This document shows positions 2,692 through 25,496 of a stretch of 25,496 nt of DNA, in pieces. The position numbers were made by a program, and so were the translations under genes. How positions within the stretch are numbered: position 1 is the first letter of the stretch; the number at the start of each line of letters is the position of its first letter. The stretch covers positions 1 to 25,496 of IMG/VR virus record IMGVR_UViG_3300016674_000129, one strand, 5' to 3'. The notes beneath the pieces were generated by a model. It saw only the letters and a program-made list of their open reading frames with translations, had not been told where the DNA came from and made no database searches. This DNA comes from a virus. Lineage: Duplodnaviria; Caudoviricetes.

Positions 2692-2723
2692 AGCCACCCA
2701 AATGCACATTTGGGTGGCTTTTT
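2692..2723 (+). terminator. Rho-independent terminator after D5
   Basis: Inverted repeat agccacccaaat / atttgggtggct followed by a T run. Confidence 0.9.
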
Positions 2724-2733
2724 AAGTATAAGA

Positions 2734-3432
2734 ATGATTACAATGGATAACTGTGGAATATATTGTATATACTTTGACCAACACCCAGATAAGTTTTATA
2801 TAGGAAGGTCTACTAACCTATATAACAGGTTACAAAACCATAAAAGTGCACTAATTTCTAATAGGCATATAAATAGTAAATTACAAAATTATTATAATAA
2901 GTACGGTATGCCTAATTTTGAAATATTGAAGTATGCTAGCCCAGAAGAATTAAATACTTTAGAAGAGTTTTATATAAAAGAATTTGACTCATTTAATAAA
3001 GGCTTAAATCTAACTAATGGTGGCGAAAATGCCGGGTATGGTGAAGGAACGTCGGCAGCAAAACATACTGAAGCAGATTATGTAGAAGTGTTAAAATTAA
3101 TTGCTAATACTAATTATACATTAAAACGCATAAGCCAAATTACCGGTGTAGGGCTAAGCATAGTAAAGCATATAGCTATTGGTAGAACCCACGGATATTT
3201 AGCTAACCTATACCCAGAGTATTACGAAATACTAAAAAGTAAAATAAACTCAAGAGATAACTCAGCAGCAAACAAAGGTATAGTATACCCAAATATACTT
3301 TCTCCAGAAGGCACTACTTATAGTATTAGCAATATACGTGCTTTTTGCAGAGAGCATGGATTACAGGCACAGAATCTACATAAAGTTCTTACTAAGCAGA
3401 GAGGTTCACATAAAGGCTGGAGACTAGCATGA
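2734..3432 (+). CDS. Free-standing GIY-YIG homing endonuclease (Seg-like)
   Basis: GIYCIY...FYIG..R..H motif, conserved Glu (LEEFYI), GLNLTNGG, and C-terminal HTH/NUMOD-like modules ending in HKGW. Start is ATG 2734 or 2743, because TTG 2710 lies inside the terminator stem. Confidence 0.9.
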   Translation: MITMDNCGIYCIYFDQHPDKFYIGRSTNLYNRLQNHKSALISNRHINSKLQNYYNKYGMPNFEILKYASPEELNTLEEFYIKEFDSFNKGLNLTNGGENAGYGEGTSAAKHTEADYVEVLKLIANTNYTLKRISQITGVGLSIVKHIAIGRTHGYLANLYPEYYEILKSKINSRDNSAANKGIVYPNILSPEGTTYSISNIRAFCREHGLQAQNLHKVLTKQRGSHKGWRLA

Positions 3433-3728
3433 AAGTAACAATAACATACCACGACAACGACTCTCTGACTGTAGAAGAAGTAGTAAAGCAAGCAGTACAT
3501 AACTATGGCCGTAACGCTAGTATCGAAATAATGCCTGACTCTACTATGGCATATGACCACATACATTTCGGCCTACAGCAACTAATAAATCATGAGCAGT
3601 TTAGTATGCTTTTTGATAGAATGTCTAACTATCAGGAAGAATTAAAAAAGCTACGTGCTGGTGTATTATATAAAGTAACAGAGATTATCGACCAGATTAT
3701 CGTAGAAAACGAAGCAAAGGTAGAATAG
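3429..3728 (+). CDS. Hypothetical protein (99 aa) upstream of the helicase
   Basis: ATGA overlap with the endonuclease stop and a 1-nt gap to the helicase ATG. Confidence 0.75.
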   Translation: MKVTITYHDNDSLTVEEVVKQAVHNYGRNASIEIMPDSTMAYDHIHFGLQQLINHEQFSMLFDRMSNYQEELKKLRAGVLYKVTEIIDQIIVENEAKVE

Positions 3729-3729
3729 C

Positions 3730-5118
3730 ATGGATGTTAGTGCCGTTGTACTGAATAAGTTATTAACAGAACAAAACCTTGAAATATGGGCTAAGTTAAA
3801 ACTGGTTTTTCTAGACCCGGCATATAGCTCCCTGTATAGTGTAATCAATAAATACTATGAAAAGTACGGAAACGTACCTTCCTTTGGTGACCTTGAATTA
3901 ACTGTTAGGGACAGTCCAGCGTCTAAAACCCTAGCAACATTAAAACTTACAGATGTTCCAGAAGTTTCCGCAGAAGTAGCTCTGGACGCTCTAATAGACC
4001 AGTATACACAGTCAGAAACAGTTAAACTATTGGACAAATTTGTAGATAAACTACCTTTGTATGATAGTAATGAAATTAAAGAAAATCTTTCTTCCATAGC
4101 ACTAACAATAGAAGAAAAAACACATACCAGTGAAAAAGTATTCACTATGGCTGATATGTTTATGTTCCGCCATCCTGATGAACTAGAGAAAGAACGTGTC
4201 TACCTGGGTCTTAACAATACTTTTGATTCTGTACTTGGTGGGGTGGCTCGTCAAGAGCTTATTCTTATTGGAGGAAAACGCGGATCTGGTAAGTCCATTA
4301 CTAGCAGTAATATTTTTGTTAATCAGTTTGAGTCCGGCAACTCTAGTATTTACTTCTCCATTGAAATGACCGCAATGGAAACAATGGAGCGTAACTTAGC
4401 TATTCTAGCTAATGTAAATCTTCAGAACCTAAAGCAGGGAAAGCTTACGGATGATGAAGTGCTTCGAGTAGTAAAAGCACGCGCAAATATGTTTAAAGAT
4501 GCTGACGAACTGGTTCTGGATTATATGAGGCATCGCGATCGTTACAAGTTCGAAGAAACCTTAGTGCGTAACTTTTCCCTAAAAGATCACCAGATGATTG
4601 TAGTAGATGATAGAGATCTAACACTATCTAGTATTGATTTGCACTTAGGTAAGATGAAAGCTAAGTTTGGTGATGGTCTAAAGGTAGCAGTAGTAGACTA
4701 TGTTAATCAGATTGTAGTTGAAGGGGCTAGTCAGTATGATTGGCAACCACAAATTGAAGTGTCTAAAAAGCTAAAGAATCTTGCTCGTAAGTATGAAGTT
4801 GTAATGGTATCTCCATATCAAATTGATGCTACTGGCGAAGCACGTTTTGCTAAGGGTATTCTAGATGCTGCTGACATTGCTCTTGTAATGGAAGCTCACG
4901 ATAAAGATGCCCAGGCTATATCTTTTGAAACTACTAAAATTCGTGGTGGTAAAGAAATGAATTTTACCTGCCCGATTGATTGGGACACCCTTCGCATTTC
5001 TCCGATGAGTATTGATAAACCAGCCTCAAAAGAAACTGTTAAGAAAGCCGGTTCTGGAAAGAAGAAAGAAACGGCAGCAAGTGGAGAGCCTGCAGCCGAT
5101 TTGCCTTGGGATGCGTAA
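3730..5118 (+). CDS. Replicative DnaB-like (SF4) helicase, T5 D6-like
   Basis: Walker A GKRGSGKS, FSIEM, Walker B VVDY, SPYQ, and position directly before the primase. Confidence 0.92.
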   Translation: MDVSAVVLNKLLTEQNLEIWAKLKLVFLDPAYSSLYSVINKYYEKYGNVPSFGDLELTVRDSPASKTLATLKLTDVPEVSAEVALDALIDQYTQSETVKLLDKFVDKLPLYDSNEIKENLSSIALTIEEKTHTSEKVFTMADMFMFRHPDELEKERVYLGLNNTFDSVLGGVARQELILIGGKRGSGKSITSSNIFVNQFESGNSSIYFSIEMTAMETMERNLAILANVNLQNLKQGKLTDDEVLRVVKARANMFKDADELVLDYMRHRDRYKFEETLVRNFSLKDHQMIVVDDRDLTLSSIDLHLGKMKAKFGDGLKVAVVDYVNQIVVEGASQYDWQPQIEVSKKLKNLARKYEVVMVSPYQIDATGEARFAKGILDAADIALVMEAHDKDAQAISFETTKIRGGKEMNFTCPIDWDTLRISPMSIDKPASKETVKKAGSGKKKETAASGEPAADLPWDA

Positions 5119-5120
5119 AT

Positions 5121-5975
5121 ATGAGTGATCCAGTTTTAGATTTACTAAACAGTAAAGGCCTTGCCTTTACTGTTTCAGGACGAGACTACCTTATCCGCTG
5201 TCTCAATCCTGAGCATGACGACAGCAATCCCAGCTTTAGGGTTGATAAGGTAACTGGTATTGCACATTGTTTTAGTTGTGGGTTTAAAACCAATATCTTT
5301 AAGTATTTCGGAATATTCAGCAACCCAATACCTATAAAGATAGCTAAGCTGAAAGAAAAGTTAAAAGAAGTTATGCAAATGCAGCATGGGTTAGAACCAT
5401 TACCGGGTGGTATACCATATACTAGAGCATTTAGAGGACTATCCCCTAATACGTTAAAGAAGTTCAATGCTTTTTATACTAATTCTATTGATAAGCTAGA
5501 AGATAGAATTATATTTCCTATCACAGATATATCTGGTAAAACAGTAGTATATGTAGCTAGACATACTCTTAGCAATGGAAACCCTAGATATATAAATTAT
5601 CCTAGCGGAGTACAAATACCTTTATTCCCTCCTAGTGCTCCAAAGGACTACAAGTCAATTATTCTTGTAGAAGGTTTATTTGATTTTCTAAACTTGTACG
5701 ATAAAGGATTAGAAAACGCAGTAGCTTGTTTTGGAACTAATACGCTACAAAAAGATACAAAACTAAAACTTTTGCCGTTTAAGGCACAAGGTATTCAGAA
5801 AATCTTCATTATGTTTGATGGAGACGAGGCAGGAGAAAAGGCTGCCAAAACTTTGAAACCCTTAATTGAGGACGAAGGTTTCTTAGTAGAAATTATCACT
5901 CTTCCTGACGGAACGGATCCGGGAGAATTAGGACAAGAAGATGTTTCTAGTATTAAGGAATATATAAAACAATGA
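5121..5975 (+). CDS. DNA primase (Zn finger plus TOPRIM)
   Basis: CLNPEH..NPS...CFSCG Zn-binding domain, EGLFD and FDGDEAG TOPRIM motifs. ATG at 5121. Confidence 0.93.
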   Translation: MSDPVLDLLNSKGLAFTVSGRDYLIRCLNPEHDDSNPSFRVDKVTGIAHCFSCGFKTNIFKYFGIFSNPIPIKIAKLKEKLKEVMQMQHGLEPLPGGIPYTRAFRGLSPNTLKKFNAFYTNSIDKLEDRIIFPITDISGKTVVYVARHTLSNGNPRYINYPSGVQIPLFPPSAPKDYKSIILVEGLFDFLNLYDKGLENAVACFGTNTLQKDTKLKLLPFKAQGIQKIFIMFDGDEAGEKAAKTLKPLIEDEGFLVEIITLPDGTDPGELGQEDVSSIKEYIKQ

Positions 5976-8251
5976 AGATTGCACTTATTGATAAAGCACC
6001 AAATAGAACTCGCTACTCAGATTATTTTGATTTCGAGTTTGACCACTATCATATGAGTTCTGTACCTATTACAAAACTCCTAAAGAAAGACGTAGATCTA
6101 GAAGTAGATCTGGAACCATATGATTTCGTGATTCTAGTTGGTGCAGAAGCAGCAAAAGAGTACGCAAAGATTACTAGTGTCACTAACTATGCAGGACAGT
6201 TAATTAATGATAAATTCATTCCAATTAGTAACCCTGCTATGCTGGCTTTCAAGCCAGAAGGAAAGCCAGATTTCCAGCGAGCTGTAGATAAGATTAAGAA
6301 ATATATTAGTGGCACTCTACTAGCCCCAACTATTGGAGACTATAAAGGTATATCTAGTACTGTAGAAGCAAAAGAGTATTTAGATGAAATTATTGAAAAT
6401 GCCCAGGGTGTTGTAGCATGGGATACGGAAACTACTGCCCTATATCCTAGAGATGGTTATGTATTAGGTGTATCTCTTACTTATAAAGTAAAACAGGGCA
6501 GGTATATTCTTACTGACTGCCTAGATGAAGAATGTGTAGAAAAACTACAGCAGATCGCTGACTCGTTTGAAACAGTGTTTCATAATATGAAATTTGACTA
6601 CAAGATGATTGCATACCATCTTGGAATTAAATTTAATCGTAATCGTGTACATGATACTATGCTAATGCACTATGCATTAGATGAAAACGATTCTCATGGC
6701 TTAAAGCAGTTGGCATTGAAGTACACTGATTTTGGAGACTATGATTCTACTCTAGATGAGTTTAAGAAAGATTACTGTGCAAAGCATGGAGTTCTAAACG
6801 ATGATTTCACATACGATCTAATTCCTTTCGACGTCATTAGCGAGTATGCTAGTATTGATACTGCGGTAACTTTTGAACTATTCAATAAGTTTAGACCTAT
6901 CCTTCAGCGAAATGATAAGCTGACATTTGTATATGAAAAGATTCTAGTACCTGGAACATTATTCCTAATGGATATGGAAGAGGTAGGTATACCTATTAGC
7001 CAAGAGCGTATGCAAGGGGCTAATATATACTTAGGAGAGCAGATTCAAGCTGCTAAGGAAGCACTGTATAGTTATGAGGCAGTACAGAAGTATGAAAAAG
7101 ATACGGGAAAAATTTTCAACCCTAATTCAGTGCTGCAGTTACGTTCTGTTTTATTTGATTATGTTGGACTTACTCCCACTGGTAAAATCACTAAAGCAGG
7201 CGCTATATCTACGGATGCGGAAGTACTAGAAACACTTAGCGAAGAACACCCTTTACCAAAAGATATTCTTAAAGTACGTCAAATGGGTAAAATGCAGAAT
7301 ACTTATATTAGTAAGATTCTGCCGGAGTTAGATAAAGATGGTCGCATTAGAACGAACTTTAATCTCATTTTTACTACTAGTGGCCGACTATCTAGTTCGG
7401 GCAAGTTTAACGCTCAGCAAATCCCGCGGGACGACCCAATTATTAAAGGTTGTATTGCAGCACCTAAAGGATACAAGATCGTATCACAGGATTTAGCAAC
7501 CGCTGAAATGTATTATGCGGCAGTATTGTCTAGTGATAAAAACCTTCAAGCTGTTTTTACTAGTGGAGGTGACTTCCACTCTACTATTGCTAAAATGGTT
7601 TTTAACTTACCTTGTGATGTTGATGATGTAAAGAAACAGTTCGGTAGTATGCGACAGTCTGCTAAGGCTATTTCCTTTGGTATTTTGTACGGTTCGGGAG
7701 CTAAAAAAGTATCTGAGACGGTTACTAAAGCAACTGGTGAGTATTATCCAGTTGAGCAGGCTCAAGAAGATATTGATTCTTACTTTAAAAAGTTCAATAA
7801 GCTGAAGAGTTGGCTAAAGTCCAGAAAAGAGTTCATTGAAGCTAATGGATATACTTATTCTTTCTTTGGAAGAAAACGTAGACTTCCTAATGTATTCTCT
7901 TCCGATAAGGGTATTGCTGCACATGAAATACGAAGCGGTATTAACTCAGAAGTACAGTCACTAGCATCTGATATTAACCTATTTGGTGCTATGGATACTG
8001 CCAAAGAAATTAAAAAAGCAGGGTTAGATGCTAATATTTTTATGTTAGTACATGACTCTATTGTAGCCTTAGTTAGAGAAGATCAAGTAGAGCAATACTG
8101 CAAAATTCTAGCAGAGTGTACTCAGCGAGATAGAGGCTGTTCTATTAAAGGATGCCCTATTGGTATCGATCAGGAAGTTGGTGATGACTACTCGTTTGGG
8201 AAATTCGAAAAATCTTATAGATTGGAGCAAGGTATCCTTTCCCGTATTTAA
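5972..8251 (+). CDS. pol: Family A DNA polymerase with 3'-5' exonuclease, T5 type
   Basis: ExoI DTET, ExoII HNMKFD, ExoIII YASID, TTSGRLSSS, motif A QDLATAEM, motif B RQSAKAISFGILYG, motif C VHDS, and a T5-like N-terminus (MKIALIDKA...DFVILVGAE). Confidence 0.97.
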   Translation: MKIALIDKAPNRTRYSDYFDFEFDHYHMSSVPITKLLKKDVDLEVDLEPYDFVILVGAEAAKEYAKITSVTNYAGQLINDKFIPISNPAMLAFKPEGKPDFQRAVDKIKKYISGTLLAPTIGDYKGISSTVEAKEYLDEIIENAQGVVAWDTETTALYPRDGYVLGVSLTYKVKQGRYILTDCLDEECVEKLQQIADSFETVFHNMKFDYKMIAYHLGIKFNRNRVHDTMLMHYALDENDSHGLKQLALKYTDFGDYDSTLDEFKKDYCAKHGVLNDDFTYDLIPFDVISEYASIDTAVTFELFNKFRPILQRNDKLTFVYEKILVPGTLFLMDMEEVGIPISQERMQGANIYLGEQIQAAKEALYSYEAVQKYEKDTGKIFNPNSVLQLRSVLFDYVGLTPTGKITKAGAISTDAEVLETLSEEHPLPKDILKVRQMGKMQNTYISKILPELDKDGRIRTNFNLIFTTSGRLSSSGKFNAQQIPRDDPIIKGCIAAPKGYKIVSQDLATAEMYYAAVLSSDKNLQAVFTSGGDFHSTIAKMVFNLPCDVDDVKKQFGSMRQSAKAISFGILYGSGAKKVSETVTKATGEYYPVEQAQEDIDSYFKKFNKLKSWLKSRKEFIEANGYTYSFFGRKRRLPNVFSSDKGIAAHEIRSGINSEVQSLASDINLFGAMDTAKEIKKAGLDANIFMLVHDSIVALVREDQVEQYCKILAECTQRDRGCSIKGCPIGIDQEVGDDYSFGKFEKSYRLEQGILSRI

Positions 8252-16288: not shown

Positions 16289-16482
16289 AAAAGTCATTAT
16301 ATGCTATTGGATATGAGTGGCCTGATGGATCATTAGGATTTTATACACTGTTAGGCGGAGAAATACTGCACAGTACCAAAAAAGATGCGTTGGAAACACT
16401 AGACTATGTAAAACGTACTAACTCTAGTGCTAGCAAAGAATATAAACTATTTAAAGTAAAATTAAAGGAAGTTATTGAATGA
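16285..16482 (+). CDS. Small hypothetical protein (65 aa)
   Basis: ATGA overlaps with both dut and nrdJ. Confidence 0.65.
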   Translation: MKKSLYAIGYEWPDGSLGFYTLLGGEILHSTKKDALETLDYVKRTNSSASKEYKLFKVKLKEVIE

Positions 16483-18500
16483 CAGTAAGTACACGAGCAC
16501 AAGTAATTACCCGTAGAACATATAATCGACCACTTAATGAAGATGGAACGGAGTTTGAAACATGGGAACAGACAGTAAACAGAGTTATTAAGCACCAACG
16601 CTTCTTATGGGAACGTGCTAAAACAGCGACCATTCTACGCGATGTTCCTCTACATGATGTGACCGAGGATTTGGAAGAGTGGCAGACGCTTAACGGCAAT
16701 GAACTCGCAGAACTAGAAGAACTTAGGCAGTTGTTGATTAGTCGTAAAGTTGCAGTAGCCGGCAGAACATTATGGCTAGGTGGTACAGATATCTCTAAGC
16801 GTCGCGAAGCTAGTATGTTTAACTGTAGTTTTACTAATGTTGAAACAATTTATGATGTTGTAGACGTATTTTGGTTACTACTTCAAGGTTGTGGTGTTGG
16901 TTTCCGCCCAGTAGCAGGATCGCTTACCGGATTCAGACAATATATCCCAGAACTAGAAATTAAGCGTTCTAGAAACTCTACGATTAAGGGTCGCGAGGAA
17001 AACTTAGAGTCTTGGGATGATGAAACAAATACTTGGACTATTAGTGTTGGCGACTCTGCCGAAGCTTGGGCCAAGTCTATCGGAAAACTATTAGCAGGTA
17101 AGTATCCAGCTAAAAAGCTAGTATTGGAGTTTTCCGAGATTCGTAAAGCAGGTATTAGACTTAAGAATTACGGTTGGCTATCTCAGGGTGATGTAGGTAT
17201 TGCTAAAGCCTATACCAAGGTATTTAATATTCTTAATTCCAAAGCTGACAGTATTTTGTCAGAGATGGATATTCTGGATGTTATCAACCTATTGGGCACG
17301 GTATTGTCAACTCGCCGTAGTGCACAGATTGCAGTAATGGACGATCACAATCCTAGCGTATTTGATTTTGCGGATGCTAAAGCAGGTATGTGGGAAAATG
17401 GAAATGACCATCGTAGTCAGAGTAATAATTCTATTATTTTCTGGAAGCGTCCTGCATATGATGATCTATATGCTTGGTTTGACAAAATTAATCAAGGTGG
17501 TAATGGAGAACCCGGTCTAATTAATGGGCAGCAAATGAAAGCTCGCGCTCCATGGGCTGTTGGGCTTAACCCTTGTGCTGAAATTCTATTACCTAACAAA
17601 GGTTTCTGTAACTTAGTTAGTATCGATTTGTTGAAGTTCCGCAATGACAATTTAGGATTACTTCGTGCTGCTAAAGTTATTGCAAGAGCTAACTATCGTC
17701 AAACTGTAGTAGATTTCCGTGACGGATTATTGCAAGAATCTTGGCACTTAAATAATGAACATCTTCGTTTATGCGGTGTGTCACTAATGGGTGTGGCAGG
17801 TCGTACAGATATGAAGGCTTATGATTATCGCAGATTAGAGCGTACTATTACTACTGCCGCATACTCTATGGCTAAAGACTTAGGCCTACAGTATCCTAAG
17901 AATGTTACCAGTATTAAACCAGAAGGTACTCAAAGTAAGTGTTATGACTCTCTAGAGGGTATGCATAAGCCTCTAGGAAAGTATATTCTTAATAATGTTG
18001 CATTTAGTAAGTACGATCTATTAGTAGATAAACTTCGTGATGCTAATTATAATGTATTTAACCATCCATACGATGATTCAGCAACACTTGTTACTTTCCC
18101 AGTAAAGAATGATGGTGTTGATTTCGATATTGTTGACGGTAAGGAAGTTAACCTAGATTCTGCTGTTCAGCAACTTGAGTCGTATAAGATGCTGATGGAT
18201 AGTTACTGTCAGCAAAATGTAAGCTGTACTATTTCATATTCTCCAGAAGAAACTCCTGAAATTGTCAAATGGTTGCACGATAACTGGGATAGTTATGTGG
18301 CTGTTAGCTTCTTGTTTAGAAATGATCCAAGCAAGACCGCAAAAGACTTAGGATACCCGTATCTTCCACAAGAAGTTACTACTAAAGAGATTTATGAAGA
18401 GTATATTCGTAACCTATTACCAGTAGATCTAGATTCCGCTAATTCTTTTGAAGAGTTAGCTATGGATGATTGTGCTGGTGGAATGTGTCCAATCAAATGA
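16479..18500 (+). CDS. nrdJ: Class II (adenosylcobalamin-dependent) monomeric ribonucleotide reductase
   Basis: RRTYNRP, GRTLWLGGT, FNCSF, G.GVGF, RRSAQIA, NPCAEI (thiyl Cys), FCNL, KPEGT and a C-terminal CAGGMCPIK redox pair. No Tyr-Tyr pair at the C-terminus and no adjacent beta subunit. Confidence 0.92.
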   Translation: MTVSTRAQVITRRTYNRPLNEDGTEFETWEQTVNRVIKHQRFLWERAKTATILRDVPLHDVTEDLEEWQTLNGNELAELEELRQLLISRKVAVAGRTLWLGGTDISKRREASMFNCSFTNVETIYDVVDVFWLLLQGCGVGFRPVAGSLTGFRQYIPELEIKRSRNSTIKGREENLESWDDETNTWTISVGDSAEAWAKSIGKLLAGKYPAKKLVLEFSEIRKAGIRLKNYGWLSQGDVGIAKAYTKVFNILNSKADSILSEMDILDVINLLGTVLSTRRSAQIAVMDDHNPSVFDFADAKAGMWENGNDHRSQSNNSIIFWKRPAYDDLYAWFDKINQGGNGEPGLINGQQMKARAPWAVGLNPCAEILLPNKGFCNLVSIDLLKFRNDNLGLLRAAKVIARANYRQTVVDFRDGLLQESWHLNNEHLRLCGVSLMGVAGRTDMKAYDYRRLERTITTAAYSMAKDLGLQYPKNVTSIKPEGTQSKCYDSLEGMHKPLGKYILNNVAFSKYDLLVDKLRDANYNVFNHPYDDSATLVTFPVKNDGVDFDIVDGKEVNLDSAVQQLESYKMLMDSYCQQNVSCTISYSPEETPEIVKWLHDNWDSYVAVSFLFRNDPSKTAKDLGYPYLPQEVTTKEIYEEYIRNLLPVDLDSANSFEELAMDDCAGGMCPIK

Positions 18501-18691
18501 ACCCACAAGAAACTAATATTAATATCAATGTAACTGTTCAAGAACTAGAGTTAATAGCTAATGCATTAAGCGAGTTGCCATATAAAGTATCTAAACAAGT
18601 TATAGATAAATTAACTATCCAATATAATATGTTTGTACAGGAGCAAATGCCTCCACCACCCACTAAACCTGTAGGAGTTCCAGATGCCTGA
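18497..18691 (+). CDS. Small hypothetical protein (64 aa) with a Pro-rich tail
   Basis: ATG 18497 overlaps the nrdJ TGA. Helical core ELELIANALSELPYKVSKQVIDKL. Confidence 0.7.
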   Translation: MNPQETNININVTVQELELIANALSELPYKVSKQVIDKLTIQYNMFVQEQMPPPPTKPVGVPDA

Positions 18692-19094
18692 TAATTGTCC
18701 TGTATCATCAATATATCCAGAAGTAAATATAGCAAACCACCTAACGTGCATAAGGCTTGCTAACCTAGGTCCTGCGGACCCAAGAGAGCCTAATCATATT
18801 TTCTGGAATGATAAAATGATTAAGTGGCGCGTCAAAGAAGGTGAAGCTAGAACTAGGTTGTGCTATAATTGCGAAGAATACGATGCTTCACCAGAGGTAT
18901 TAGATTGTCTAGCGAAAGGTCCGGGTGGTTCAGTGAAGGCTTCTGATATTGACCCTACTTGGGCTGACATTGATGGCATGCCAAGCGGTAACTGCCTTCG
19001 TTGGAATATCACTTGTTCTGCTTTAAGAACTTGTGACGATTGGGAGCCAATCCTAGAAGATGACGAAGAAGATATGATGGAAGCAGAGATGTAA
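18684..19094 (+). CDS. Cys-rich putative metal-binding protein with an acidic tail
   Basis: AGGAG ribosome binding site, 8 Cys including CYNC and C-x6-C-x5-CDDW, ending just before the terminator. Confidence 0.75.
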   Translation: MPDNCPVSSIYPEVNIANHLTCIRLANLGPADPREPNHIFWNDKMIKWRVKEGEARTRLCYNCEEYDASPEVLDCLAKGPGGSVKASDIDPTWADIDGMPSGNCLRWNITCSALRTCDDWEPILEDDEEDMMEAEM

Positions 19095-19097
19095 AAG

Positions 19098-19132
19098 AAA
19101 AGCCCCGTATACTTAGTATACGGGGCTTTTTT
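19098..19132. terminator. Bidirectional Rho-independent terminator between convergent transcription units
   Basis: aaaagccccgtatac-tta-gtatacggggctttt, a perfect stem with an A run on the left and a T run on the right. Confidence 0.93.
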
Positions 19133-20654
19133 ATTTAATGGTGATAGAAGTAAATTTTTCTTTAACTAGTTTAGCTGCCAACTCTCTTACTGAGGTATTA
19201 ATTAATCTTGAAGGATAGTATCCTTTATGACCTTGTTTTCCTCCAACCTCAAAAGTTGCATAAGGATATCGCATATAGGACATAAAAGCCGTTATCGCGC
19301 CATCACGTGCACGAGAAAGTTGCTCAACCTTTACGGACTCAGCAAACCTACCTGTCTGATATTTTAAATTAGGTCTATGCATATTCTTCTTAATTTGATC
19401 ATGTAACTGCATATTAAGAAGGTTTTGCAAGCTAGTAAGTGAAGTAAACTGCCCTTGTATATTTCTTAGTGCTGGTAACTGAGTTTTTTGCGGCTTTACT
19501 ACTTCCGTCTTACCCTTACTAATTTTAGACTTTGGTAGACTTACATCTACTGATTCTGTTTTTCTAGATTTTTTGGTAGGTACTTTTTTACCAGTTAATT
19601 TTGCTATTACCGCACTCTCAATATTATCTTTTAAAGATGGCGAAAACCTTTCAGAAGTTAGTACTTCACCTATAATTTTATTTTTTATAGTCCTATTTAT
19701 ACCACCTTCAAGTCTAGACCCAAACTCTTTTTGATTTTCAGCTCTATCTTGTATAATAGTTATAATAGCCCCAACTCTATTAAGAGCCGGTGATATAGTT
19801 TTCACCATATCTAATTCAACTATAGTATTACCATATGAGTGTGATTCGGCTAAAGTATCATACTCTTTATCTATTTTTTCTTTTATAATGTTAAAATAGC
19901 CACTATTTGAACTAGATAATCCCTTATAAGACATATTGCGTAAACTCTGTCTAATAACTGATTTTAGCATAGTAGTACTAGTCATTATACTATCTATATC
20001 TTTTGTTACTTTGTAAGATGTATTTAATTCTTCAATAGCTTTATCCCTATCGCCTTTATCTCCAGAGTTATAAAGAGTAATTAGGTGCATAGCTATTCTA
20101 TCTACAACATAGGATATAACTTTAGAAGAGTTTTTACTTTCTGCATATGTTGATAGTAATCCCTTTACCTCATCTATTTTTAGCTGTAAAGGACTTTTAG
20201 CTAGTTTACTACTAGATACTAAGTGACCTATATCAAAACCACCAGATACGGCGAAATCAGATAAAGTTTTATTTATTATAGGAGTAAAAAGATTTTTACC
20301 AGCACTATTATAATTCTTAAATAGTACGCCTATAATACTACGATTATATTCTATTACTATTGGTCCTGCAGAAAGTATTTTAGTAATATCGCTTAAAGCC
20401 ATTTTATTTATTGCTGTAGCAGATAATACTTTGAAACTACTAAGGCGTATTTGCGCTACTAAAGCTTCTTCGAACTCTTTTAGCCTAGGTCCTAATATAT
20501 GTGAGAGAGCTACTTCAAGAACCGACATATCTATAGGTACAAAGTGAGGTCTGCTATCTAATTTTCGTCTAGAAGTTGTTTTTGCAGCATCAAATACTTT
20601 ATGTAGCAATATGCCTAGCCCACTTGTATAATTCTTTTTTGTAGCTCTGCTCAT
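19131..20654 (-). CDS. 507-aa basic protein whose C-terminal region resembles the T5 tail-completion/neck protein (p143-like)
   Basis: C-terminal M..P.LKYQTGRFAESVKV...YM.YPY..F...P.RLI..S.RE.A pattern, recalled from T5-like tail completion proteins. The N-terminal ~370 aa are unassigned. Confidence 0.55.
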   Translation of the reverse strand: MSRATKKNYTSGLGILLHKVFDAAKTTSRRKLDSRPHFVPIDMSVLEVALSHILGPRLKEFEEALVAQIRLSSFKVLSATAINKMALSDITKILSAGPIVIEYNRSIIGVLFKNYNSAGKNLFTPIINKTLSDFAVSGGFDIGHLVSSSKLAKSPLQLKIDEVKGLLSTYAESKNSSKVISYVVDRIAMHLITLYNSGDKGDRDKAIEELNTSYKVTKDIDSIMTSTTMLKSVIRQSLRNMSYKGLSSSNSGYFNIIKEKIDKEYDTLAESHSYGNTIVELDMVKTISPALNRVGAIITIIQDRAENQKEFGSRLEGGINRTIKNKIIGEVLTSERFSPSLKDNIESAVIAKLTGKKVPTKKSRKTESVDVSLPKSKISKGKTEVVKPQKTQLPALRNIQGQFTSLTSLQNLLNMQLHDQIKKNMHRPNLKYQTGRFAESVKVEQLSRARDGAITAFMSYMRYPYATFEVGGKQGHKGYYPSRLINTSVRELAAKLVKEKFTSITIK

Positions 20655-20656
20655 AT

Positions 20657-21340
20657 TTAATTCCTATATGCCATTATAATAGCTTTACACATTTTACTAC
20701 GGACAATATCTTCATCCCTAAACCGTACCACTTCGATACCTTCTAAACCTTCAAGTCTGCGAACAGCGTCTAGAAGTCCGGAATCTTCTCCAATATCTGT
20801 TTGATCTTGGTCACCACTAAGAATAATTTTACAGTTCTTTCCTATTCTAGAAAGTAGCATCTTCATTTCTTCTTTTGTAGCATTTTGGGCTTCATCTACT
20901 AATACTATACAGTTATCAAAAGTTGCTCCACGCATATACCCTAACGGTTTAGGTTCTATATCTTTTGATTTTAATGCATATTCGTAGAAGCCCTTACCTA
21001 AAGACTTAGTAAAAATATTATCGAATGGGTCTAAGAAGGGGGCATACTTTTCTTCTAAAGTACCTGGAAGGAATCCTAAACCTCGACCGGTCTCAATATT
21101 TGGTCTAGTTAGAATAATTTTTTGTATCCTTCTATGGAATAGCTCGCCTGCAGCATATGTAGCTGCTATATAAGTTTTTCCTGTACCTGCTGAACCTATA
21201 CCAAATATAATATCGTTATTTCGTATAGCTTCTAAGTACTCACCTTGTATATAATTGAGAGGTTTTACTTCTCTAAAACCATACTCAACAGGGTTTTGGG
21301 TACCACCCTTACGTGTTCTCTTTCCAGAAGAATTGCCCAT
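20657..21340 (-). CDS. phoH: PhoH-family ATPase
   Basis: GSAGTGKT, RP...LGFLPG..EK, YMRGATF, VDEAQN, SRIG, GD..Q.D, DIVRS. Confidence 0.96.
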   Translation of the reverse strand: MGNSSGKRTRKGGTQNPVEYGFREVKPLNYIQGEYLEAIRNNDIIFGIGSAGTGKTYIAATYAAGELFHRRIQKIILTRPNIETGRGLGFLPGTLEEKYAPFLDPFDNIFTKSLGKGFYEYALKSKDIEPKPLGYMRGATFDNCIVLVDEAQNATKEEMKMLLSRIGKNCKIILSGDQDQTDIGEDSGLLDAVRRLEGLEGIEVVRFRDEDIVRSKMCKAIIMAYRN

Positions 21341-21343
21341 ATG

Positions 21344-21697
21344 CTATCCTAATTGTTTAAAATATGTAACTGCTCTAACTACTGCATCTGCTAATATGGG
21401 TTTATTTATTATCCAGCCATATTTATACATTAAAGAGTAATTAAAGTCATCACTAGTTGAAGTAACAAAAACTATTGGTATATTGTATGGCTCACATAAT
21501 TCAGCAACCGATATACCTGAAGATTTTATTAGTACTAAATCTAAGAGAGCTCCATTAAACTTATATTTTTTTAATAATAATGAAGCTTCTTCATAACTGC
21601 TTGCTACAACCACATCTATCATAGGGTCTATTTTGTGCACTATTTCTTGCAATAGTTTACGCATAGACCTATTATCATCTACTATTAGTATATTCAT
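21344..21697 (-). CDS. Stand-alone response-regulator receiver domain (CheY-like)
   Basis: ILIVDD (D7, D8), LLD (D53 phosphoacceptor), SG, IPIVFVT (T79), NKP (K99, P100). 117 aa with no output domain. Confidence 0.88.
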   Translation of the reverse strand: MNILIVDDNRSMRKLLQEIVHKIDPMIDVVVASSYEEASLLLKKYKFNGALLDLVLIKSSGISVAELCEPYNIPIVFVTSTSDDFNYSLMYKYGWIINKPILADAVVRAVTYFKQLG

Positions 21698-21699
21698 AT

Positions 21700-22776
21700 T
21701 TAGAAACTATATGATATAGATCCTATTAAAGTATTCCATTTAGTTAGGGTTTCAGGAGAACCATATTTAACCCACCCAACACCTTTTCCATAGTGGTATT
21801 CTACGGAAGTAGTAATTCTTTTATAATTATTAGTAATACCTATAAATCTATCTATATTATGTGCATCTTTAGAAATATTATGTCCCAAAGAATACCCTAA
21901 ATAAATTATACTATTATCTATATATTTACCAGCTACTACGTTATAATCAAGAGACTCTTGAAAAGATGTAACATTATTATTTTTACTATAGGTATATGTA
22001 ATACCTTCAGTTACTTCAGTTCTGGCAAACCAAATCTTATTATCATATTGAATACCATATTTAAACAGATCGTATGTCGCTACATTATATACACTTACAT
22101 AATATTGATAAATTGGAGAGGTACTATTACTAGTTTGGTGCGATACATATTTATGTTTAGCAACATAAAAAGACCAATCAGCATTTTCTAGTTTTATAGA
22201 TAAATCAGTATTATCATTACTAGAAGACATATCTATATTTCTGTCGTACCTTTTGAAAGCTTCCATTTGTAAGCTTTTCTCGTCTATTACACCCCTACCA
22301 ATCGCCATTCTAGTAGTTATAAGAACATTATCTAGCTTTTTCTTGAGTATTAGATTATGTCCATCCATAGTCGTGAACGAACCATTATACATTCTATATG
22401 AGTAACCAGCAAATGGTAGTATAGCCATTTGGTAGTCTCCTGGAGATTCTAGTACACCGTTATAGAATGAGTCTACCCTACCAAACCTACCTATTTGATA
22501 TATTATATCAGTATTATATACAGATATAGCTTGCTCTAGTACTAATCTTCTTACAAAAGTACTTGAATCTAGTCCTGCTACTTGTGCCCTTATAGCAGTA
22601 TTTGCTATATCAGCATCCATATTTATAGCTACTACTTTTCTATCATTATGAAATGAGTGGTCTGAAAAAGCGGTATAAAATAAATATCCAGATAAATTAC
22701 CACCATAATCTATAGCATTAGCAGATACACTTACTATTAAAAAACTAATCAGTAATATCAATTTTTTTAATGTCAT
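21700..22776 (-). CDS. Outer-membrane beta-barrel (porin-like) protein
   Basis: Sec signal peptide ending in ANA, Tyr/Gly-rich amphipathic strands, GR...FYN...ILP..Y...DG segment, and a BAM-type C-terminus GSISYSF. Confidence 0.78.
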   Translation of the reverse strand: MTLKKLILLISFLIVSVSANAIDYGGNLSGYLFYTAFSDHSFHNDRKVVAINMDADIANTAIRAQVAGLDSSTFVRRLVLEQAISVYNTDIIYQIGRFGRVDSFYNGVLESPGDYQMAILPFAGYSYRMYNGSFTTMDGHNLILKKKLDNVLITTRMAIGRGVIDEKSLQMEAFKRYDRNIDMSSSNDNTDLSIKLENADWSFYVAKHKYVSHQTSNSTSPIYQYYVSVYNVATYDLFKYGIQYDNKIWFARTEVTEGITYTYSKNNNVTSFQESLDYNVVAGKYIDNSIIYLGYSLGHNISKDAHNIDRFIGITNNYKRITTSVEYHYGKGVGWVKYGSPETLTKWNTLIGSISYSF

Positions 22777-23170
22777 GGTATCCGCCGTTTATTAATAAAG
22801 TCCTAGATGATATATATCCTACAGATCCAGGAGTTATTGCTACTTGCCTTAACATTTCATAGTCTGATCTTACCATACGAAAATAGCTGGCATTACCGCT
22901 ATTAACGTATGTAGTTATAGCGGATTGGAATTGTTGTGGAGATATGCCTAATGTTTGTTTAACAAAACTTATATGGGTAGGATTGTCAAACCCTGAATAG
23001 TATACTGTAATCTTACTACCATCTGACCAAAACCTAGTTTTCATAGTATATATCCAATAAACCTCTATCCTAGGGATAGAGGTTATATTGGGTTCTATGT
23101 TTTTTATAGGTTCTGTGGCTGTTGCAAGTAAGGAGTATATAAGTACTACTAAAGCAATTAAATACTTCAT
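22745..23170 (-). CDS. Small secreted periplasmic-binding-protein-like protein (single-lobe family usually annotated as phosphate ABC substrate-binding)
   Basis: Signal peptide ending in ATA, IYTMKTRFWSDGSKI, H..F....LG, SG, S..EM...VA.TPGSVGYI. Confidence 0.78.
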   Translation of the reverse strand: MKYLIALVVLIYSLLATATEPIKNIEPNITSIPRIEVYWIYTMKTRFWSDGSKITVYYSGFDNPTHISFVKQTLGISPQQFQSAITTYVNSGNASYFRMVRSDYEMLRQVAITPGSVGYISSRTLLINGGYHDIKKIDITD

Positions 23171-23901
23171 TTCCTATTCCTTAAATACTCTAGTTGTCTA
23201 TCTGTGTCCTGCTGCATTTGTGATATTCTCTTTACCTGTTCTTGAGTATCTTTTACAGTAGACTCTAAACTTAGTACCCTATTATCATATATAATATGGT
23301 CTCTTTTATTTAGTTCCATAGACTGTACTATTTGAGTTCTGTCCTTTTCAATACTATCTACCCATCTCCATAGTGTAGTATTAAAAGCTCCGAACACTAG
23401 TACTAGTACTAGCCATGCACCAACACCTCTATTTAGCCATTGCTTGAGTTCTTTCTCAGTATTATCAGCTTTACTAGAGATTTCTTTAGTTGCTTTGTCA
23501 CATTTGGAAGCTACTTCTTTTTGTGCAAGTTCTGTTTCTTTAACTATAAGCTCTAACTTATCTCTACCATGGTCTTGTATTTCCTCTATTCTAGTGTGTA
23601 TTCTAGATACAGAAGCATCAAATTTCTGGAAGTGTTCTCGCTGAGACGTCCTTAATTCAGTAATTTGATCAGATTGTTGTGATGCTTGTTGACCAAGTAC
23701 GGCAACTGACTTTGTTAAATCTACTATCTGGTCTAGTCTGTCTTCCACCTTTTTAAGGTGTGAGATAAAATCTGACTCAGTTTTCTGAATTCTATCTGAC
23801 AATAGGTTAAGTGATTGGGTCAGTAAAGTATGTGCTTCTATTTCTCGTTGCTGTAGGTCATTTCTATTAGTTCTATATGGTTGGTTATTTTGGTTTGACA
23901 T
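23167..23901 (-). CDS. Single-pass membrane protein with long coiled coils on both sides
   Basis: Heptad-rich Q/E/K N-terminal region, WLNRGVGAWLVLVLVFGAF TM segment, C-terminal coiled coil. ATGA overlap with the binding-protein gene. Confidence 0.75.
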   Translation of the reverse strand: MSNQNNQPYRTNRNDLQQREIEAHTLLTQSLNLLSDRIQKTESDFISHLKKVEDRLDQIVDLTKSVAVLGQQASQQSDQITELRTSQREHFQKFDASVSRIHTRIEEIQDHGRDKLELIVKETELAQKEVASKCDKATKEISSKADNTEKELKQWLNRGVGAWLVLVLVFGAFNTTLWRWVDSIEKDRTQIVQSMELNKRDHIIYDNRVLSLESTVKDTQEQVKRISQMQQDTDRQLEYLRNRK

Positions 23902-23910
23902 GATTGGTAC

Positions 23911-24474
23911 CTACTTTAAATATGGTATATACTTTGGACTACGTACTTCTAGCACATCATATACGTGGTGTCTATTTATATCGCACGCAGATCTAGTACC
24001 ATATAGTGGGGTTTTACTTTTCATGCAAAACTTTTCTACATTCCCAAACCATTTCCTATGGTCACAAGAACTTGATAGTTTACATGCGCGTCTTTCAGTA
24101 TCTAAACCACCTATTCCACCATTATACGCTGCATCAGCAAAAGCAAGAGCATCTTCTGTTGATGCTGAGTACCTAATATAATAGCTATAGTTTGATTTAG
24201 ACATTAGTAATAGTGCCCTAATCTGTAAGTCCGGTCTAGCATATATGTTAGACCAACTTAACTCTGAGAGTTCTTTAGGGTATTTAGCTTTTAGTTCTGA
24301 TAATGCATCAAATCTAATACTACCGTCTTGTTTAAAGGCCCTTGTAAGCTGTCCTAACCCAGCCCCTTCTTCACGAGGAGTTCTAAGCCTAGACTTTGGG
24401 TTCCAGCACTTAGTATGGGTTAGACTTAGGCAGCTTTCATGTTCTATTAAAGCTCCAAGGGCTTGGCTTTTGGG
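23911..24474 (-). CDS. Lytic transglycosylase (SLT-like) endolysin domain in the -1 frame relative to the upstream membrane ORF, with no canonical start codon ahead of the catalytic Glu
   Basis: Manual translation of 24474 to 23911 has no internal stop: PKSQALGALIEHESCLSLTHTKCWNPKSRLRTPREEGAGLGQLT...RPDLQIRALLLMSKSN...AAYNGGIG. ES, GLGQ and AYNGG are the three SLT motifs. Confidence 0.85.
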   Translation of the reverse strand, partial: PKSQALGALIEHESCLSLTHTKCWNPKSRLRTPREEGAGLGQLTRAFKQDGSIRFDALSELKAKYPKELSELSWSNIYARPDLQIRALLLMSKSNYSYYIRYSASTEDALAFADAAYNGGIGGLDTERRACKLSSSCDHRKWFGNVEKFCMKSKTPLYGTRSACDINRHHVYDVLEVRSPKYIPYLK

Positions 24475-24869
24475 TGTTCAGGCCACAACCTTATTTGTTC
24501 TTGTTTTAATGTAGGTAAGTGTATTTCAGCATTAGCTGGTATATACGTCTTTACATCTGGTGAAGCATATACTTGGGAACCAAAAAGTCCCAATAAACCA
24601 AATATTACTACACATATACCTAAAAATACTAATCCTGAACCCGTTGCTGTTTCTTTTGCCTTTTTATATACAGAAAATAAATCTATATAGTCAAATAGTG
24701 CTTTTCTAGCTAAATGTGCAAACCATACTGCAATTACTGGTGTAGCTAACTTAGCTATGAATGGTAGTGTTAGACTTCCTTCATTTGGATCACTAATAAA
24801 TAGATACGCGGTTATAATAATAGTGCCGCCTATCATAAACCAGTGTCTGAATCTAAACCATTTACTCAT
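24447..24869 (-). CDS. Three-TM holin-like membrane protein (140 aa), N-terminal part of a possible 319-aa fusion with the SLT domain
   Basis: Basic N-terminus, three hydrophobic segments (about aa 11-25, 33-54 and 79-102), located between the o-spanin and the SLT domain. Confidence 0.7.
   Translation of the reverse strand: MSKWFRFRHWFMIGGTIIITAYLFISDPNEGSLTLPFIAKLATPVIAVWFAHLARKALFDYIDLFSVYKKAKETATGSGLVFLGICVVIFGLLGLFGSQVYASPDVKTYIPANAEIHLPTLKQEQIRLWPEHPKAKPLEL
24468..24474 (-). other. Candidate -1 ribosomal frameshift heptamer C_CCA_AAA
   Basis: X_XXY_YYZ pattern in the correct phase (codons 133-134), lying in the short overlap between the TGA that bounds the -1 frame (24480-24478) and the 0-frame TAA (24449-24447). 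Confidence 0.5.
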
Positions 24870-25137
24870 CTTTATCCTTTATATTGGCTAAAGTCTTAAT
24901 TGTTGATATTGAAGCATTTTGCCTATTAGCACACTGTCCATATAGACCTATTAATTCTATATATCTAATATCTAAGGCATCTGTTGCTTCTGCTTTAGGT
25001 ATAGGCGAGCATTTTTTTAATAACTCCCTATCTATAGGTATTTCTTTTGGAGTTACTACAGAAGTATCTGGCTTTGTACCAAATAGTACGCAGCCAGATA
25101 GCATTATTGGTAACAAAATGGTGTATAAATATTTCAT
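24862..25137 (-). CDS. o-spanin (Rz1-like outer-membrane lipoprotein)
   Basis: Lipobox LSG|C, Pro-containing I...LL..C.PIP segment, Y.QC..R. ATGA overlap with the i-spanin. Confidence 0.8.
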   Translation of the reverse strand: MKYLYTILLPIMLSGCVLFGTKPDTSVVTPKEIPIDRELLKKCSPIPKAEATDALDIRYIELIGLYGQCANRQNASISTIKTLANIKDKDE

Positions 25138-25496
25138 TTTTTACCACCTATATCTGCATTTACTCTATCTATAGCAGCATTAACATCTTTAACATACTGC
25201 TCTGATGTTACACACTTACCATTTTTTATAGTAATATTTGACTGTTTTTTAACCCTAGATAATATACTAGAAATATCTTGTGTTAGGTTTTCATTATTAC
25301 TAATTAGAATATCTGTATTAGATGCTATACTTACTGATAGTTTCTCCAGTTTAGCGTCTATTTGTGATTGATATTCTTTAAATTTTTGCTCACACTCAGC
25401 CTGTGCTTCTAAATAACCAGTCTGCTTTATATGTGAGTATGTAGCTGTCAGTAAGCCTAGCAATAGTAGTATGGATACTACTATTGCTATTAACTT
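25134..25496 (-). CDS. i-spanin (Rz-like), 5' end beyond the window
   Basis: The frame is open to the window edge (KLIAIVVSILLLLGLLTATY, a TM helix), followed by a coiled coil and a C-terminal Cys. Confidence 0.72.
   Translation of the reverse strand, partial: KLIAIVVSILLLLGLLTATYSHIKQTGYLEAQAECEQKFKEYQSQIDAKLEKLSVSIASNTDILISNNENLTQDISSILSRVKKQSNITIKNGKCVTSEQYVKDVNAAIDRVNADIGGKK

Follow-up and report, generated by a model that had tools for sequence, protein, structure and literature searches.

A phage-borne trio of porin, PstS-like half binding protein and coiled-coil membrane arm beside the lysis genes of a T5-like virus

The stretch of DNA analysed here, called the window throughout, is the 25,496 nucleotides of virus record IMGVR_UViG_3300016674_000129 from IMG/VR (Duplodnaviria; Caudoviricetes; record G000, 25.5 kb and about 24% complete), which is present in sequencing runs labelled as fresh water, estuary and wastewater. 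Its plus strand carries T5-like replication genes (a split NAD ligase, a D5-like regulator, PolA and SbcCD-like nucleases), and on the minus strand the lysis genes are followed by five tightly packed genes encoding a coiled-coil membrane protein (the arm), a small secreted PstS-like protein (the lobe), an outer-membrane porin, a receiver and PhoH (Table 1). An initial annotation, made from the letters alone, took these five as a single module for sensing or uptake across the envelope. As judged from gene order the conserved unit is not these five genes, it is the trio of arm, lobe and porin in that fixed order; the receiver stands beside the trio in one of 18 loci, and in this clade phoH ordinarily sits next to the endolysin.

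The trio in viral loci

The lobe was found by homology and pattern scans in 18 distinct viral or phage-like loci, made up of the window, L001, L002, L005 and 14 loci from a broad lobe pattern scan that gave 38 matches, 21 of them chance and 17 true, with three of the latter dropped as lying on the same contig as L005 (L184) or as near copies of L175 and L180 (L176 and L199). The 18 are a floor, because the broad pattern recovers 45 of the 88 lobes without the bacterial motif; narrow motif scans of viral contigs gave 0-2 loci each, and a porin pattern scan gave 8 matches of which the 2 true ones were loci known before. Porin, lobe and arm matches on contigs of coinciding length hint at further, uncounted trio loci, and since 70 of 83 unlocated lobes without the bacterial motif are closest to a viral lobe, a large viral radiation is suggested, the tree used for this placement being an unrooted one. 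The phages that carry the trio include T5-like, N4-capsid-like and 238-292 kb phages: L001 is a 90-kb T5-like phage, L002 a metagenome contig that is phage-like by its lysis genes, and L005 matches the phrog_1357 major head protein, a family that marks its capsid as N4-type. Among the cultured phages of the GenBank set none matches the porin, the lobe or the arm.

A porin gene comes after the lobe, by hidden Markov model (HMM), in 16 of the 18 loci, and in L179 an unmatched 445-aa barrel-like open reading frame (ORF) is found in its place. Immediately upstream of the lobe is a coiled-coil gene with one transmembrane segment (17 of 18), with three small ORFs between arm gene and lobe in L205. 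A rule requiring a transmembrane segment and a coiled coil, which was tuned on the viral partner genes, is passed by 16 of the 18 and by none of 74 and none of 27 bacterial loci. The survey of gene neighbourhoods that had been proposed therefore upholds a recurring arm-lobe-porin order, but not the conservation of receiver and phoH with it. In the complete 242-kb phage L208 both arm and lobe are longer, and an alpha/beta hydrolase gene takes the porin's place behind them (5387-6166, 3343-4884, minus strand), and in L190 a multi-transmembrane MASE3-like sensor domain lies directly upstream of the trio (5678-6340, minus strand; E 3e-5, below the cut-off).

The initial annotation had linked the porin and lobe genes to lysis genes in the window, and this link recurs: 6 of the 18 loci have an endolysin within two genes and on the same strand, a raw count, the loci other than the window having been found via porin or lobe homology rather than lysis genes and several of them being interrelated. 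The six endolysins belong to four unrelated families, a transglycosylase in the window, M15 peptidases in L001 and L005, phage lysozymes in L188 and L206 and, in L002, a DUF5675 protein that we take to have a lysin role. Unlabelled lysin- or holin-like neighbours are present in L180, L183 and L205.

Lobe, porin and arm, and their bacterial relatives

The 141-aa protein is, on its predicted structure, a single (second) lobe of the PstS fold. Its AlphaFold2 model (pLDDT 89.9) was superposed by VIA on residues 118-219 of 4gd5 with Z 10.1 and a root-mean-square deviation of 3.0 over 93 aligned residues, phosphate-binding proteins fill all of the 12 best VIA rows (Z 10.1-7.9), matched at about residues 110-220 of PstS, and the cyanophage PstS structures 7xg8 and 7xg7 are among the fold matches. 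VIA was needed for this, as Foldseek gave no match for the lobe at E 0.001; lobe and porin have no match in Pfam, PHROG or NCBIfam, searches of PDB sequences with small lobe and porin alignments gave nothing significant, and no solved complex of the lobe-porin kind was found by sequence. The designation of this gene as a binding protein thus holds for the PstS-type fold, but only one of the two lobes that close on the ligand is present, the 141 aa covering about residues 110-220 of PstS chains, and the phosphate motif R-x-x-S-G-T has been lost. The REASSGT segment of 1twy, which we presume to be the phosphate-binding segment of PstS lobe 2, aligns to a segment of the family that does not match it, and the window lobe reads YYSGFDNPTH at that place. 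A similar lobe is fused to a TonB C-terminal domain (TonB_C) in one Atlas cluster (231 aa, Acidobacteriota).

The 358-aa protein is, from its model, a 16-strand outer-membrane porin, with a signal peptide, 16 long strands, a long conserved loop L3 and a terminal Phe; the model has a pLDDT of 76, with L3 (about residues 100-135) at low pLDDT. The best solved matches are OmpT (E 3e-11, TM score 0.54), Omp32 and the DcaP porins, and in the Atlas it matches Porin_4 clusters with TM scores of 0.78-0.80. With the receiver matching PF00072 as well, the folds proposed for binding protein, barrel and receiver are borne out.

Modelling of the porin-lobe complex, which the initial annotation had suggested, gave a score of 0.86 (runs 0.86, 0.77 and 0.86), against 0.21 for the best of three controls; of solved pairs 116 out of 157 reach the mark used for this score, of mismatched pairs 2 out of 215, and for alignments of the kind used here these counts are only rough. 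The runs share at least 92% of their contacts and the partners have a pLDDT of at least 79. In the model the helix tip V89-N90-S91-G92 of the lobe meets porin S29, G30, N52, R63, Q65 and L3 from the side of the short turns, the closest pairs joining lobe V89, N90 and G92 to those five porin residues, and the contacts along the porin follow short turns 58-59, 83-88, 150, 198-199, 247, 287-288 and 319 and then the lumen up to L3 (109-116). The short turns of porins are on the periplasmic side by the usual topology. Three of these residues, porin G30, porin Q65 and lobe G92, do not vary in any phage or bacterial row. As the contacts are at the short turns and in the lumen, the lobe resembles a plug or adaptor sitting in the mouth of the pore more than it does one half of a free clamshell, and it is predicted to dock as a plug in the periplasmic mouth of the porin.

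The arm consists of a 158-aa N-terminal coiled coil, a single transmembrane segment (159-177) and a 67-aa C-terminal coiled coil, and is presumably an inner-membrane protein with its C-terminal coil in the periplasm. The constant part of the viral arms is the transmembrane segment with a C-terminal coil of 44-75 aa (135 in L208). The family has 89 matches, a member of which precedes a holin-like gene in L004 without lobe or porin, and short forms are found near holin-like genes in 4 of 80 endolysin loci, so that the arm family has a link of its own to lysis cassettes. These short homologues (about 95 aa, ending just past the transmembrane segment; L134, L135, L137 and L138, about 3243-3549, plus strand) give weak PHROG 'hemolysin' matches. 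In the cytoplasmic tails of 4 of the 18 viral arms there is a motif of cyclic di-GMP (c-di-GMP) type, exact in L205 and slightly altered in L178 (one copy), L195 and L197 (two copies each), and it is absent from the window arm and 13 others. The pattern, [Y/F]xGP[D/E][R/K]R, is given in PMC5677366 as the c-di-GMP-binding Arg-rich motif of Cle proteins.

Bacterial relatives of the lobe were taken as the best 80 of 343 confirmed matches, which share one motif and include many Nitrosomonadaceae. A porin follows the lobe at 78 of these 80 loci, the other two being incomplete, a dCache sensor is present at 67 (62 of 67 with enough downstream DNA) and an acyltransferase like FeeM and the autoinducer synthases at 65. 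Of 18 large dCache_3 proteins encoded downstream or close by that were scanned by Pfam 17 have GGDEF, 16 of these with EAL as well, and one is a hybrid kinase, so the statement of the initial annotation that a small binding protein and a barrel sit in bacteria beside GGDEF/EAL or kinase sensors is supported. The typical cassette across these loci (L006-L085) is acyltransferase, half periplasmic binding protein, porin and dCache_3-PAS-GGDEF-EAL, and it looks like a unit that makes and senses a small molecule. An HMM of the bacterial porins matches the phage porin of L005 with E 2e-11, L3 included, and one bacterial porin weakly matches Porin_O_P. The lobe is not confined to this set, occurring in 75 of 300 genomes from an even sample of one proteobacterial class, in up to 9 copies (a tally that includes 3 unpublished genomes, on which no conclusion depends), and at these loci a porin lies within 1.5 kb in 25 of 27 and the coiled-coil arm in none of 27. 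The phage arm appears, by position, to stand in the place of the bacterial dCache sensor. In an unrooted FastTree tree 18 viral and 20 bacterial lobes part on one branch with support 100; because both this tree and a second one, from a quick, unfinished search, are unrooted and the bacterial rows are one motif-selected clade, any direction of transfer is a matter of inference only.

The closest described architecture is VpvABC of Vibrio cholerae, a predicted module of porin, periplasmic binding protein and diguanylate cyclase whose signal is given as unknown in PMC12456836, where the vpvAB pair is a probable 'conserved sensing unit'; in bioRxiv 10.1101/2021.10.04.463056 VpvA and VpvB are proteins of unknown function. 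The link made here is to the architecture described in PMC12456836, not to the VpvA and VpvB sequences. As in VpvABC, a porin and a small periplasmic binding-type gene are adjacent in 16 of the 18 viral loci, and bacterial relatives of the lobe sit with a membrane GGDEF/EAL sensor. The phage unit differs in having a coiled-coil protein with one transmembrane segment instead of a cyclase or kinase (none is among the 33 window ORFs scanned) and in being phage-encoded and often beside lysis genes; further, VpvB is treated as a ligand sensor in those papers, whereas the lobe is a porin plug in our model. No description of a phage-borne unit of porin, half binding protein and coiled-coil protein was found in the literature searched, which omitted most subscription papers. 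In temperate coliphages Lc/NmpC is encoded near lysis genes, and LomW and Lc/NmpC are lone prophage conversion genes. An outer-membrane barrel encoded by a phage is the likeness, but the porin of the trio has a plug and an arm as partners and belongs to a T5-like phage. LomW is described in PMC11125983 as a phage-encoded outer-membrane protein of temperate coliphages.

Neighbouring genes and the split endolysin

Table 1. Features of the minus-strand run of the window, and motif-bearing arm tails of four other loci
Feature	Position	Strand	Remarks
i-spanin-like protein, cut by window end	25134-25496	-	position and homologues in 26 cassettes; no family match
o-spanin-like lipoprotein	24862-25137	-	phrog_456 Rz-like spanin, E 0.002
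Holin-like membrane domain running into endolysin N-terminus	24447-24869	-	homologues fused to or preceding endolysin; no direct family match
Slippery heptamer C CCA AAA	24468-24474	-	would join holin-like ORF to endolysin frame
Catalytic part of lytic-transglycosylase endolysin	23911-24467	-	-1 frame; phrog_669, E 5e-10; homologues annotated endolysin/SAR endolysin transglycosylase
Core gene 1, coiled-coil membrane arm	23901-23167	-	244 aa; 89 homologues
Core gene 2, PstS-like lobe	23170-22745	-	141 aa; secreted; VpvB-like
Core gene 3, predicted 16-strand outer-membrane porin	22776-21700	-	358 aa; VpvA-like
Accessory receiver	21697-21344	-	117 aa; PF00072, E 1e-11
PhoH	21340-20657	-	227 aa; PF02562, E 2e-67
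T5 p143-like tail completion protein, which ends the gene run	19131-20654	-	PF25747, E 2e-11
Probable terminator closing the run	19098-19130	-	hairpin, 15 pairs
Motif-bearing arm tail, L178	4344-4772
Motif-bearing arm tail, L195	4337-4780
Motif-bearing arm tail, L197	4363-4794
Motif-bearing arm tail, L205	3414-3794

From the endolysin stop through to the start of the p143-like gene the spacings are 9, -4, -32, 2, 3 and 2 nt, which confirms the overlapping or tightly spaced arrangement of the five genes, beginning 9 nt past the endolysin stop, in the initial annotation. Its statement that no terminator precedes about position 19132 also stands, there being no terminator-like site within the five genes in a scan of 18500-25496 (3 sites found, 2.6 expected), the sole strong one in that range being the hairpin of Table 1. 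This hairpin is perfect, has A/T runs on both sides and stands between converging plus- and minus-strand gene runs, and is likely a bidirectional terminator. Promoter-like sites are rarer than in shuffled sequence (23 against 31.6). From their spacing, the five genes would be co-transcribed and expressed together late in infection.

A chimeric host insert, which would have undone the initial annotation, is not seen. In run X3, from a separate study, a single contig spans 20650-25496 with 105 differences and no gaps, and two contigs of run X2 together cover 19448-25496, again without gaps; since these contigs cross the region it is not chimeric. Run X1, which may be the source of the window, was not counted in this check. 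The G+C content, overall and at third codon positions (GC3), gives no foreign signal for the inserted genes.

The receiver has its residues intact (D7, D8 and D53, forming the acidic pocket with the phospho-Asp, T79 and the K99-P100 pair), and it adjoins the trio in the window only. PF00072 searches with G000 as positive control match 1 of 16 other IMG/VR records, most of them incomplete, this being G321, where the match falls within a longer reading frame at a distance of about 7.6 kb from the lobe. The absence of the receiver elsewhere rests on these searches, because a single-sequence search missed its own positive control, the receiver of L038; with the receiver as query the GenBank phage set gave 3 weak matches in unannotated records. 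HATPase_c was not found in G000, about 24% complete as it is, or in G001, and no GGDEF, EAL or kinase family is among the 33 window ORFs scanned. The receiver therefore looks like a local add-on, which would need a kinase of the host or one in unsequenced DNA.

Relatives of the endolysin, taken as the best 80 of 88 viral loci, include 26 with a cassette of the window type (spanin pair, holin-like ORF and endolysin). phoH directly follows the endolysin (at 20 nt or less, or overlapping) in 24 of the 26, the other two being one incomplete cassette and one with different genes, and because these 24 have phoH there without the arm, lobe, porin and receiver, those four genes have been inserted between endolysin and phoH. 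Near the trio, phoH is found in 1 of the 17 other loci (L001). Having long adjoined the endolysin in this clade, phoH is uninformative on a ligand, and the hint of phosphate that the initial annotation drew from it falls away, the more so with a lobe that has no phosphate motif.

The initial annotation did not remark that the endolysin is split, the holin-like ORF stopping inside the endolysin N-terminus and the -1 frame opening two codons ahead of the slippery heptamer. No indels occur at the junction in four runs from four studies, and substitutions are synonymous in frame 0 upstream (21 of 21) and in the -1 frame downstream (2 of 2). The same split is found in all 26 relatives of the window type, with no variation of the codons CAC CCA AAR in any of the 24 distinct junctions, and no such slippery site is present in 51 unsplit homologues of the endolysin; in 18 other loci the holin-like and endolysin parts are fused in-frame. 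Behind the slippery site there is no conserved stimulatory hairpin (z about 0 in 26 of 27). The pattern of substitution and conservation makes a programmed -1 frameshift in the lysis gene likely, and no description of a holin-endolysin frameshift was found in the same literature, searched with the same omission.

Elsewhere in the window, the p143-like protein has roughly double the length of the T5 profile, which it matches over the C-terminal third only, the N-terminal 340 aa being unaccounted for, and the L001 version is equally long. A GIY-YIG homing endonuclease lies amid the replication genes (2710-3432, plus strand), and a class II (B12-type) ribonucleotide reductase is encoded at 16479-18500 (plus strand), whereas at the corresponding place in the L001 phage the reductase is of two subunits.

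A possible relay across the envelope

It is likely that the products of the trio form a relay across the host envelope. We tentatively favour the more specific reading in which this relay is gated by the plug and, in this phage, tied to the timing of lysis, whilst allowing that it may well be wrong. A cue from outside that reaches the pore would shift the plug, the periplasmic coil of the arm would read the plug in the manner of the bacterial dCache sensor that it replaces, and the arm might then act on the inner-membrane lysis machinery encoded in the same gene run, so that the time of lysis is adjusted. The contact of arm and plug, the cue, the direction of signalling and the effect on lysis are what we infer from gene order, predicted folds and bacterial context. 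T4 holin T, which according to PMC11413866 has one transmembrane segment and a domain in the periplasm to which RI, also periplasmic, binds, is a precedent for periplasmic control of lysis timing. By analogy, an inner-membrane protein with one transmembrane segment has a secreted periplasmic partner in both, with environmental timing of lysis as the proposed output; the trio differs in that it includes a porin of the outer membrane and that the holin-like gene is separate. Homology was not detected, no window protein matching the holin T or antiholin RI families in Pfam or PHROG at E 0.01.

Several observations weigh against this reading. The cytoplasmic part of the arm varies from 12 to 158 aa across the viral loci and has no enzyme domain, so that a common output is not visible. 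Mean conservation at the predicted interface is barely above that of the whole protein (0.29 against 0.24 and 0.36 against 0.35). Lobe and porin are found in none of the 80 endolysin loci and the trio in none of the 26 cassettes of the window type, nor were lobe and arm found in four complete relatives for which positive controls were run, and the trio is therefore dispensable. The endolysin is 1.5-4.4 kb off in L175, L181 and L208, no lysis gene was seen within about 3.3 kb in L178 (where the contig ends in the porin), L179, L186, L190, L195 and L197, and several of the trios distant from lysis genes are stand-alone units on the opposite strand. Lysis regions are insertion hot spots, and for that reason adjacency may mirror late expression only. 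The wider claim, that lytic phages of several lineages build a sensor of porin, plug and arm which reads a small outside molecule and retimes lysis, a second kind of lysis control with a chemical trigger and unrelated to T4 T/RI, is put forward as a doubtful one.

Interference with host signalling is an unlikely alternative, though the most probable of those considered, in which porin and plug feed or jam VpvABC-like c-di-GMP or kinase sensors of the host and the arm is a decoy without output, with the effect of shifting biofilm formation or motility or of blocking a host porin used as phage receptor, and with lysis adjacency marking a late-expressed insertion site. The commonness of the lobe in the sampled proteobacterial class, an arm without enzyme domain, the lone receiver beside the trio in the window and at least 6 of 18 loci away from lysis genes are all consistent with it, but the viral lobes form their own branch and have retained a porin of their own, as would suit a unit complete in itself, and a decoy would need no conserved third gene. 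It is quite improbable that the signal runs the other way, the arm reading a cytoplasmic signal and opening or closing the plugged porin so that solutes cross the outer membrane late. The predicted geometry of the plug would suit such a gate, as would the c-di-GMP-type motifs in four arm tails and the fusion of a similar lobe to TonB_C, but the motif is missing from the window arm and 13 others, and the bacterial arrangement with its dCache input domain points from outside to inside.

There is little to recommend a structural role in lysis, in which the trio spans both membranes like a three-piece spanin and aids removal of the outer membrane. A transmembrane segment with a coil of 44-75 aa is i-spanin-like, five arms weakly match phrog_739 'Rz-like spanin' (E 2e-4 to 3e-3) and the trio is in lysis-cassette position; such weak matches are yielded by coiled coils non-specifically, however, the window, L002 and L005 already possess Rz/Rz1-like pairs, that of the window lying upstream as a separate pair, the partners of the arm are a secreted lobe and a barrel rather than those of a two-component spanin, and at one third of the loci lysis genes are distant. 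Uptake of phosphate or another nutrient together with PhoH, as the initial annotation had it, is very improbable, for although the nearest solved folds of the lobe (Z 8-10) are all PstS, a porin is present, phoH is adjacent in the window and near the trio in L001, and one bacterial porin weakly matches Porin_O_P, the lobe is half the size of PstS and leaves the REASSGT segment unmatched, in the model its conserved tip is turned towards the lumen of the porin, the phoH link is incidental, in bacteria sensors and acyltransferases rather than permeases are found next to it, and there is no permease or ATPase of the Pst kind, with no ABC permease family among the 33 window ORFs scanned.

A PstS-like fold with a neighbouring phoH is thus insufficient for annotating auxiliary genes of phosphate uptake. 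The timing of lysis by outside sensing has been worked out for very few phages, and a unit of porin, plug and arm would offer a new and testable route to it. The plug geometry also provides a structural hypothesis for the vpvAB-like pairs of bacteria, which are common and mechanistically unexplained, the phage trio being a minimal three-gene form of such a unit; if the hypothesis is true, the widespread VpvB-like half binding proteins would be porin plugs.

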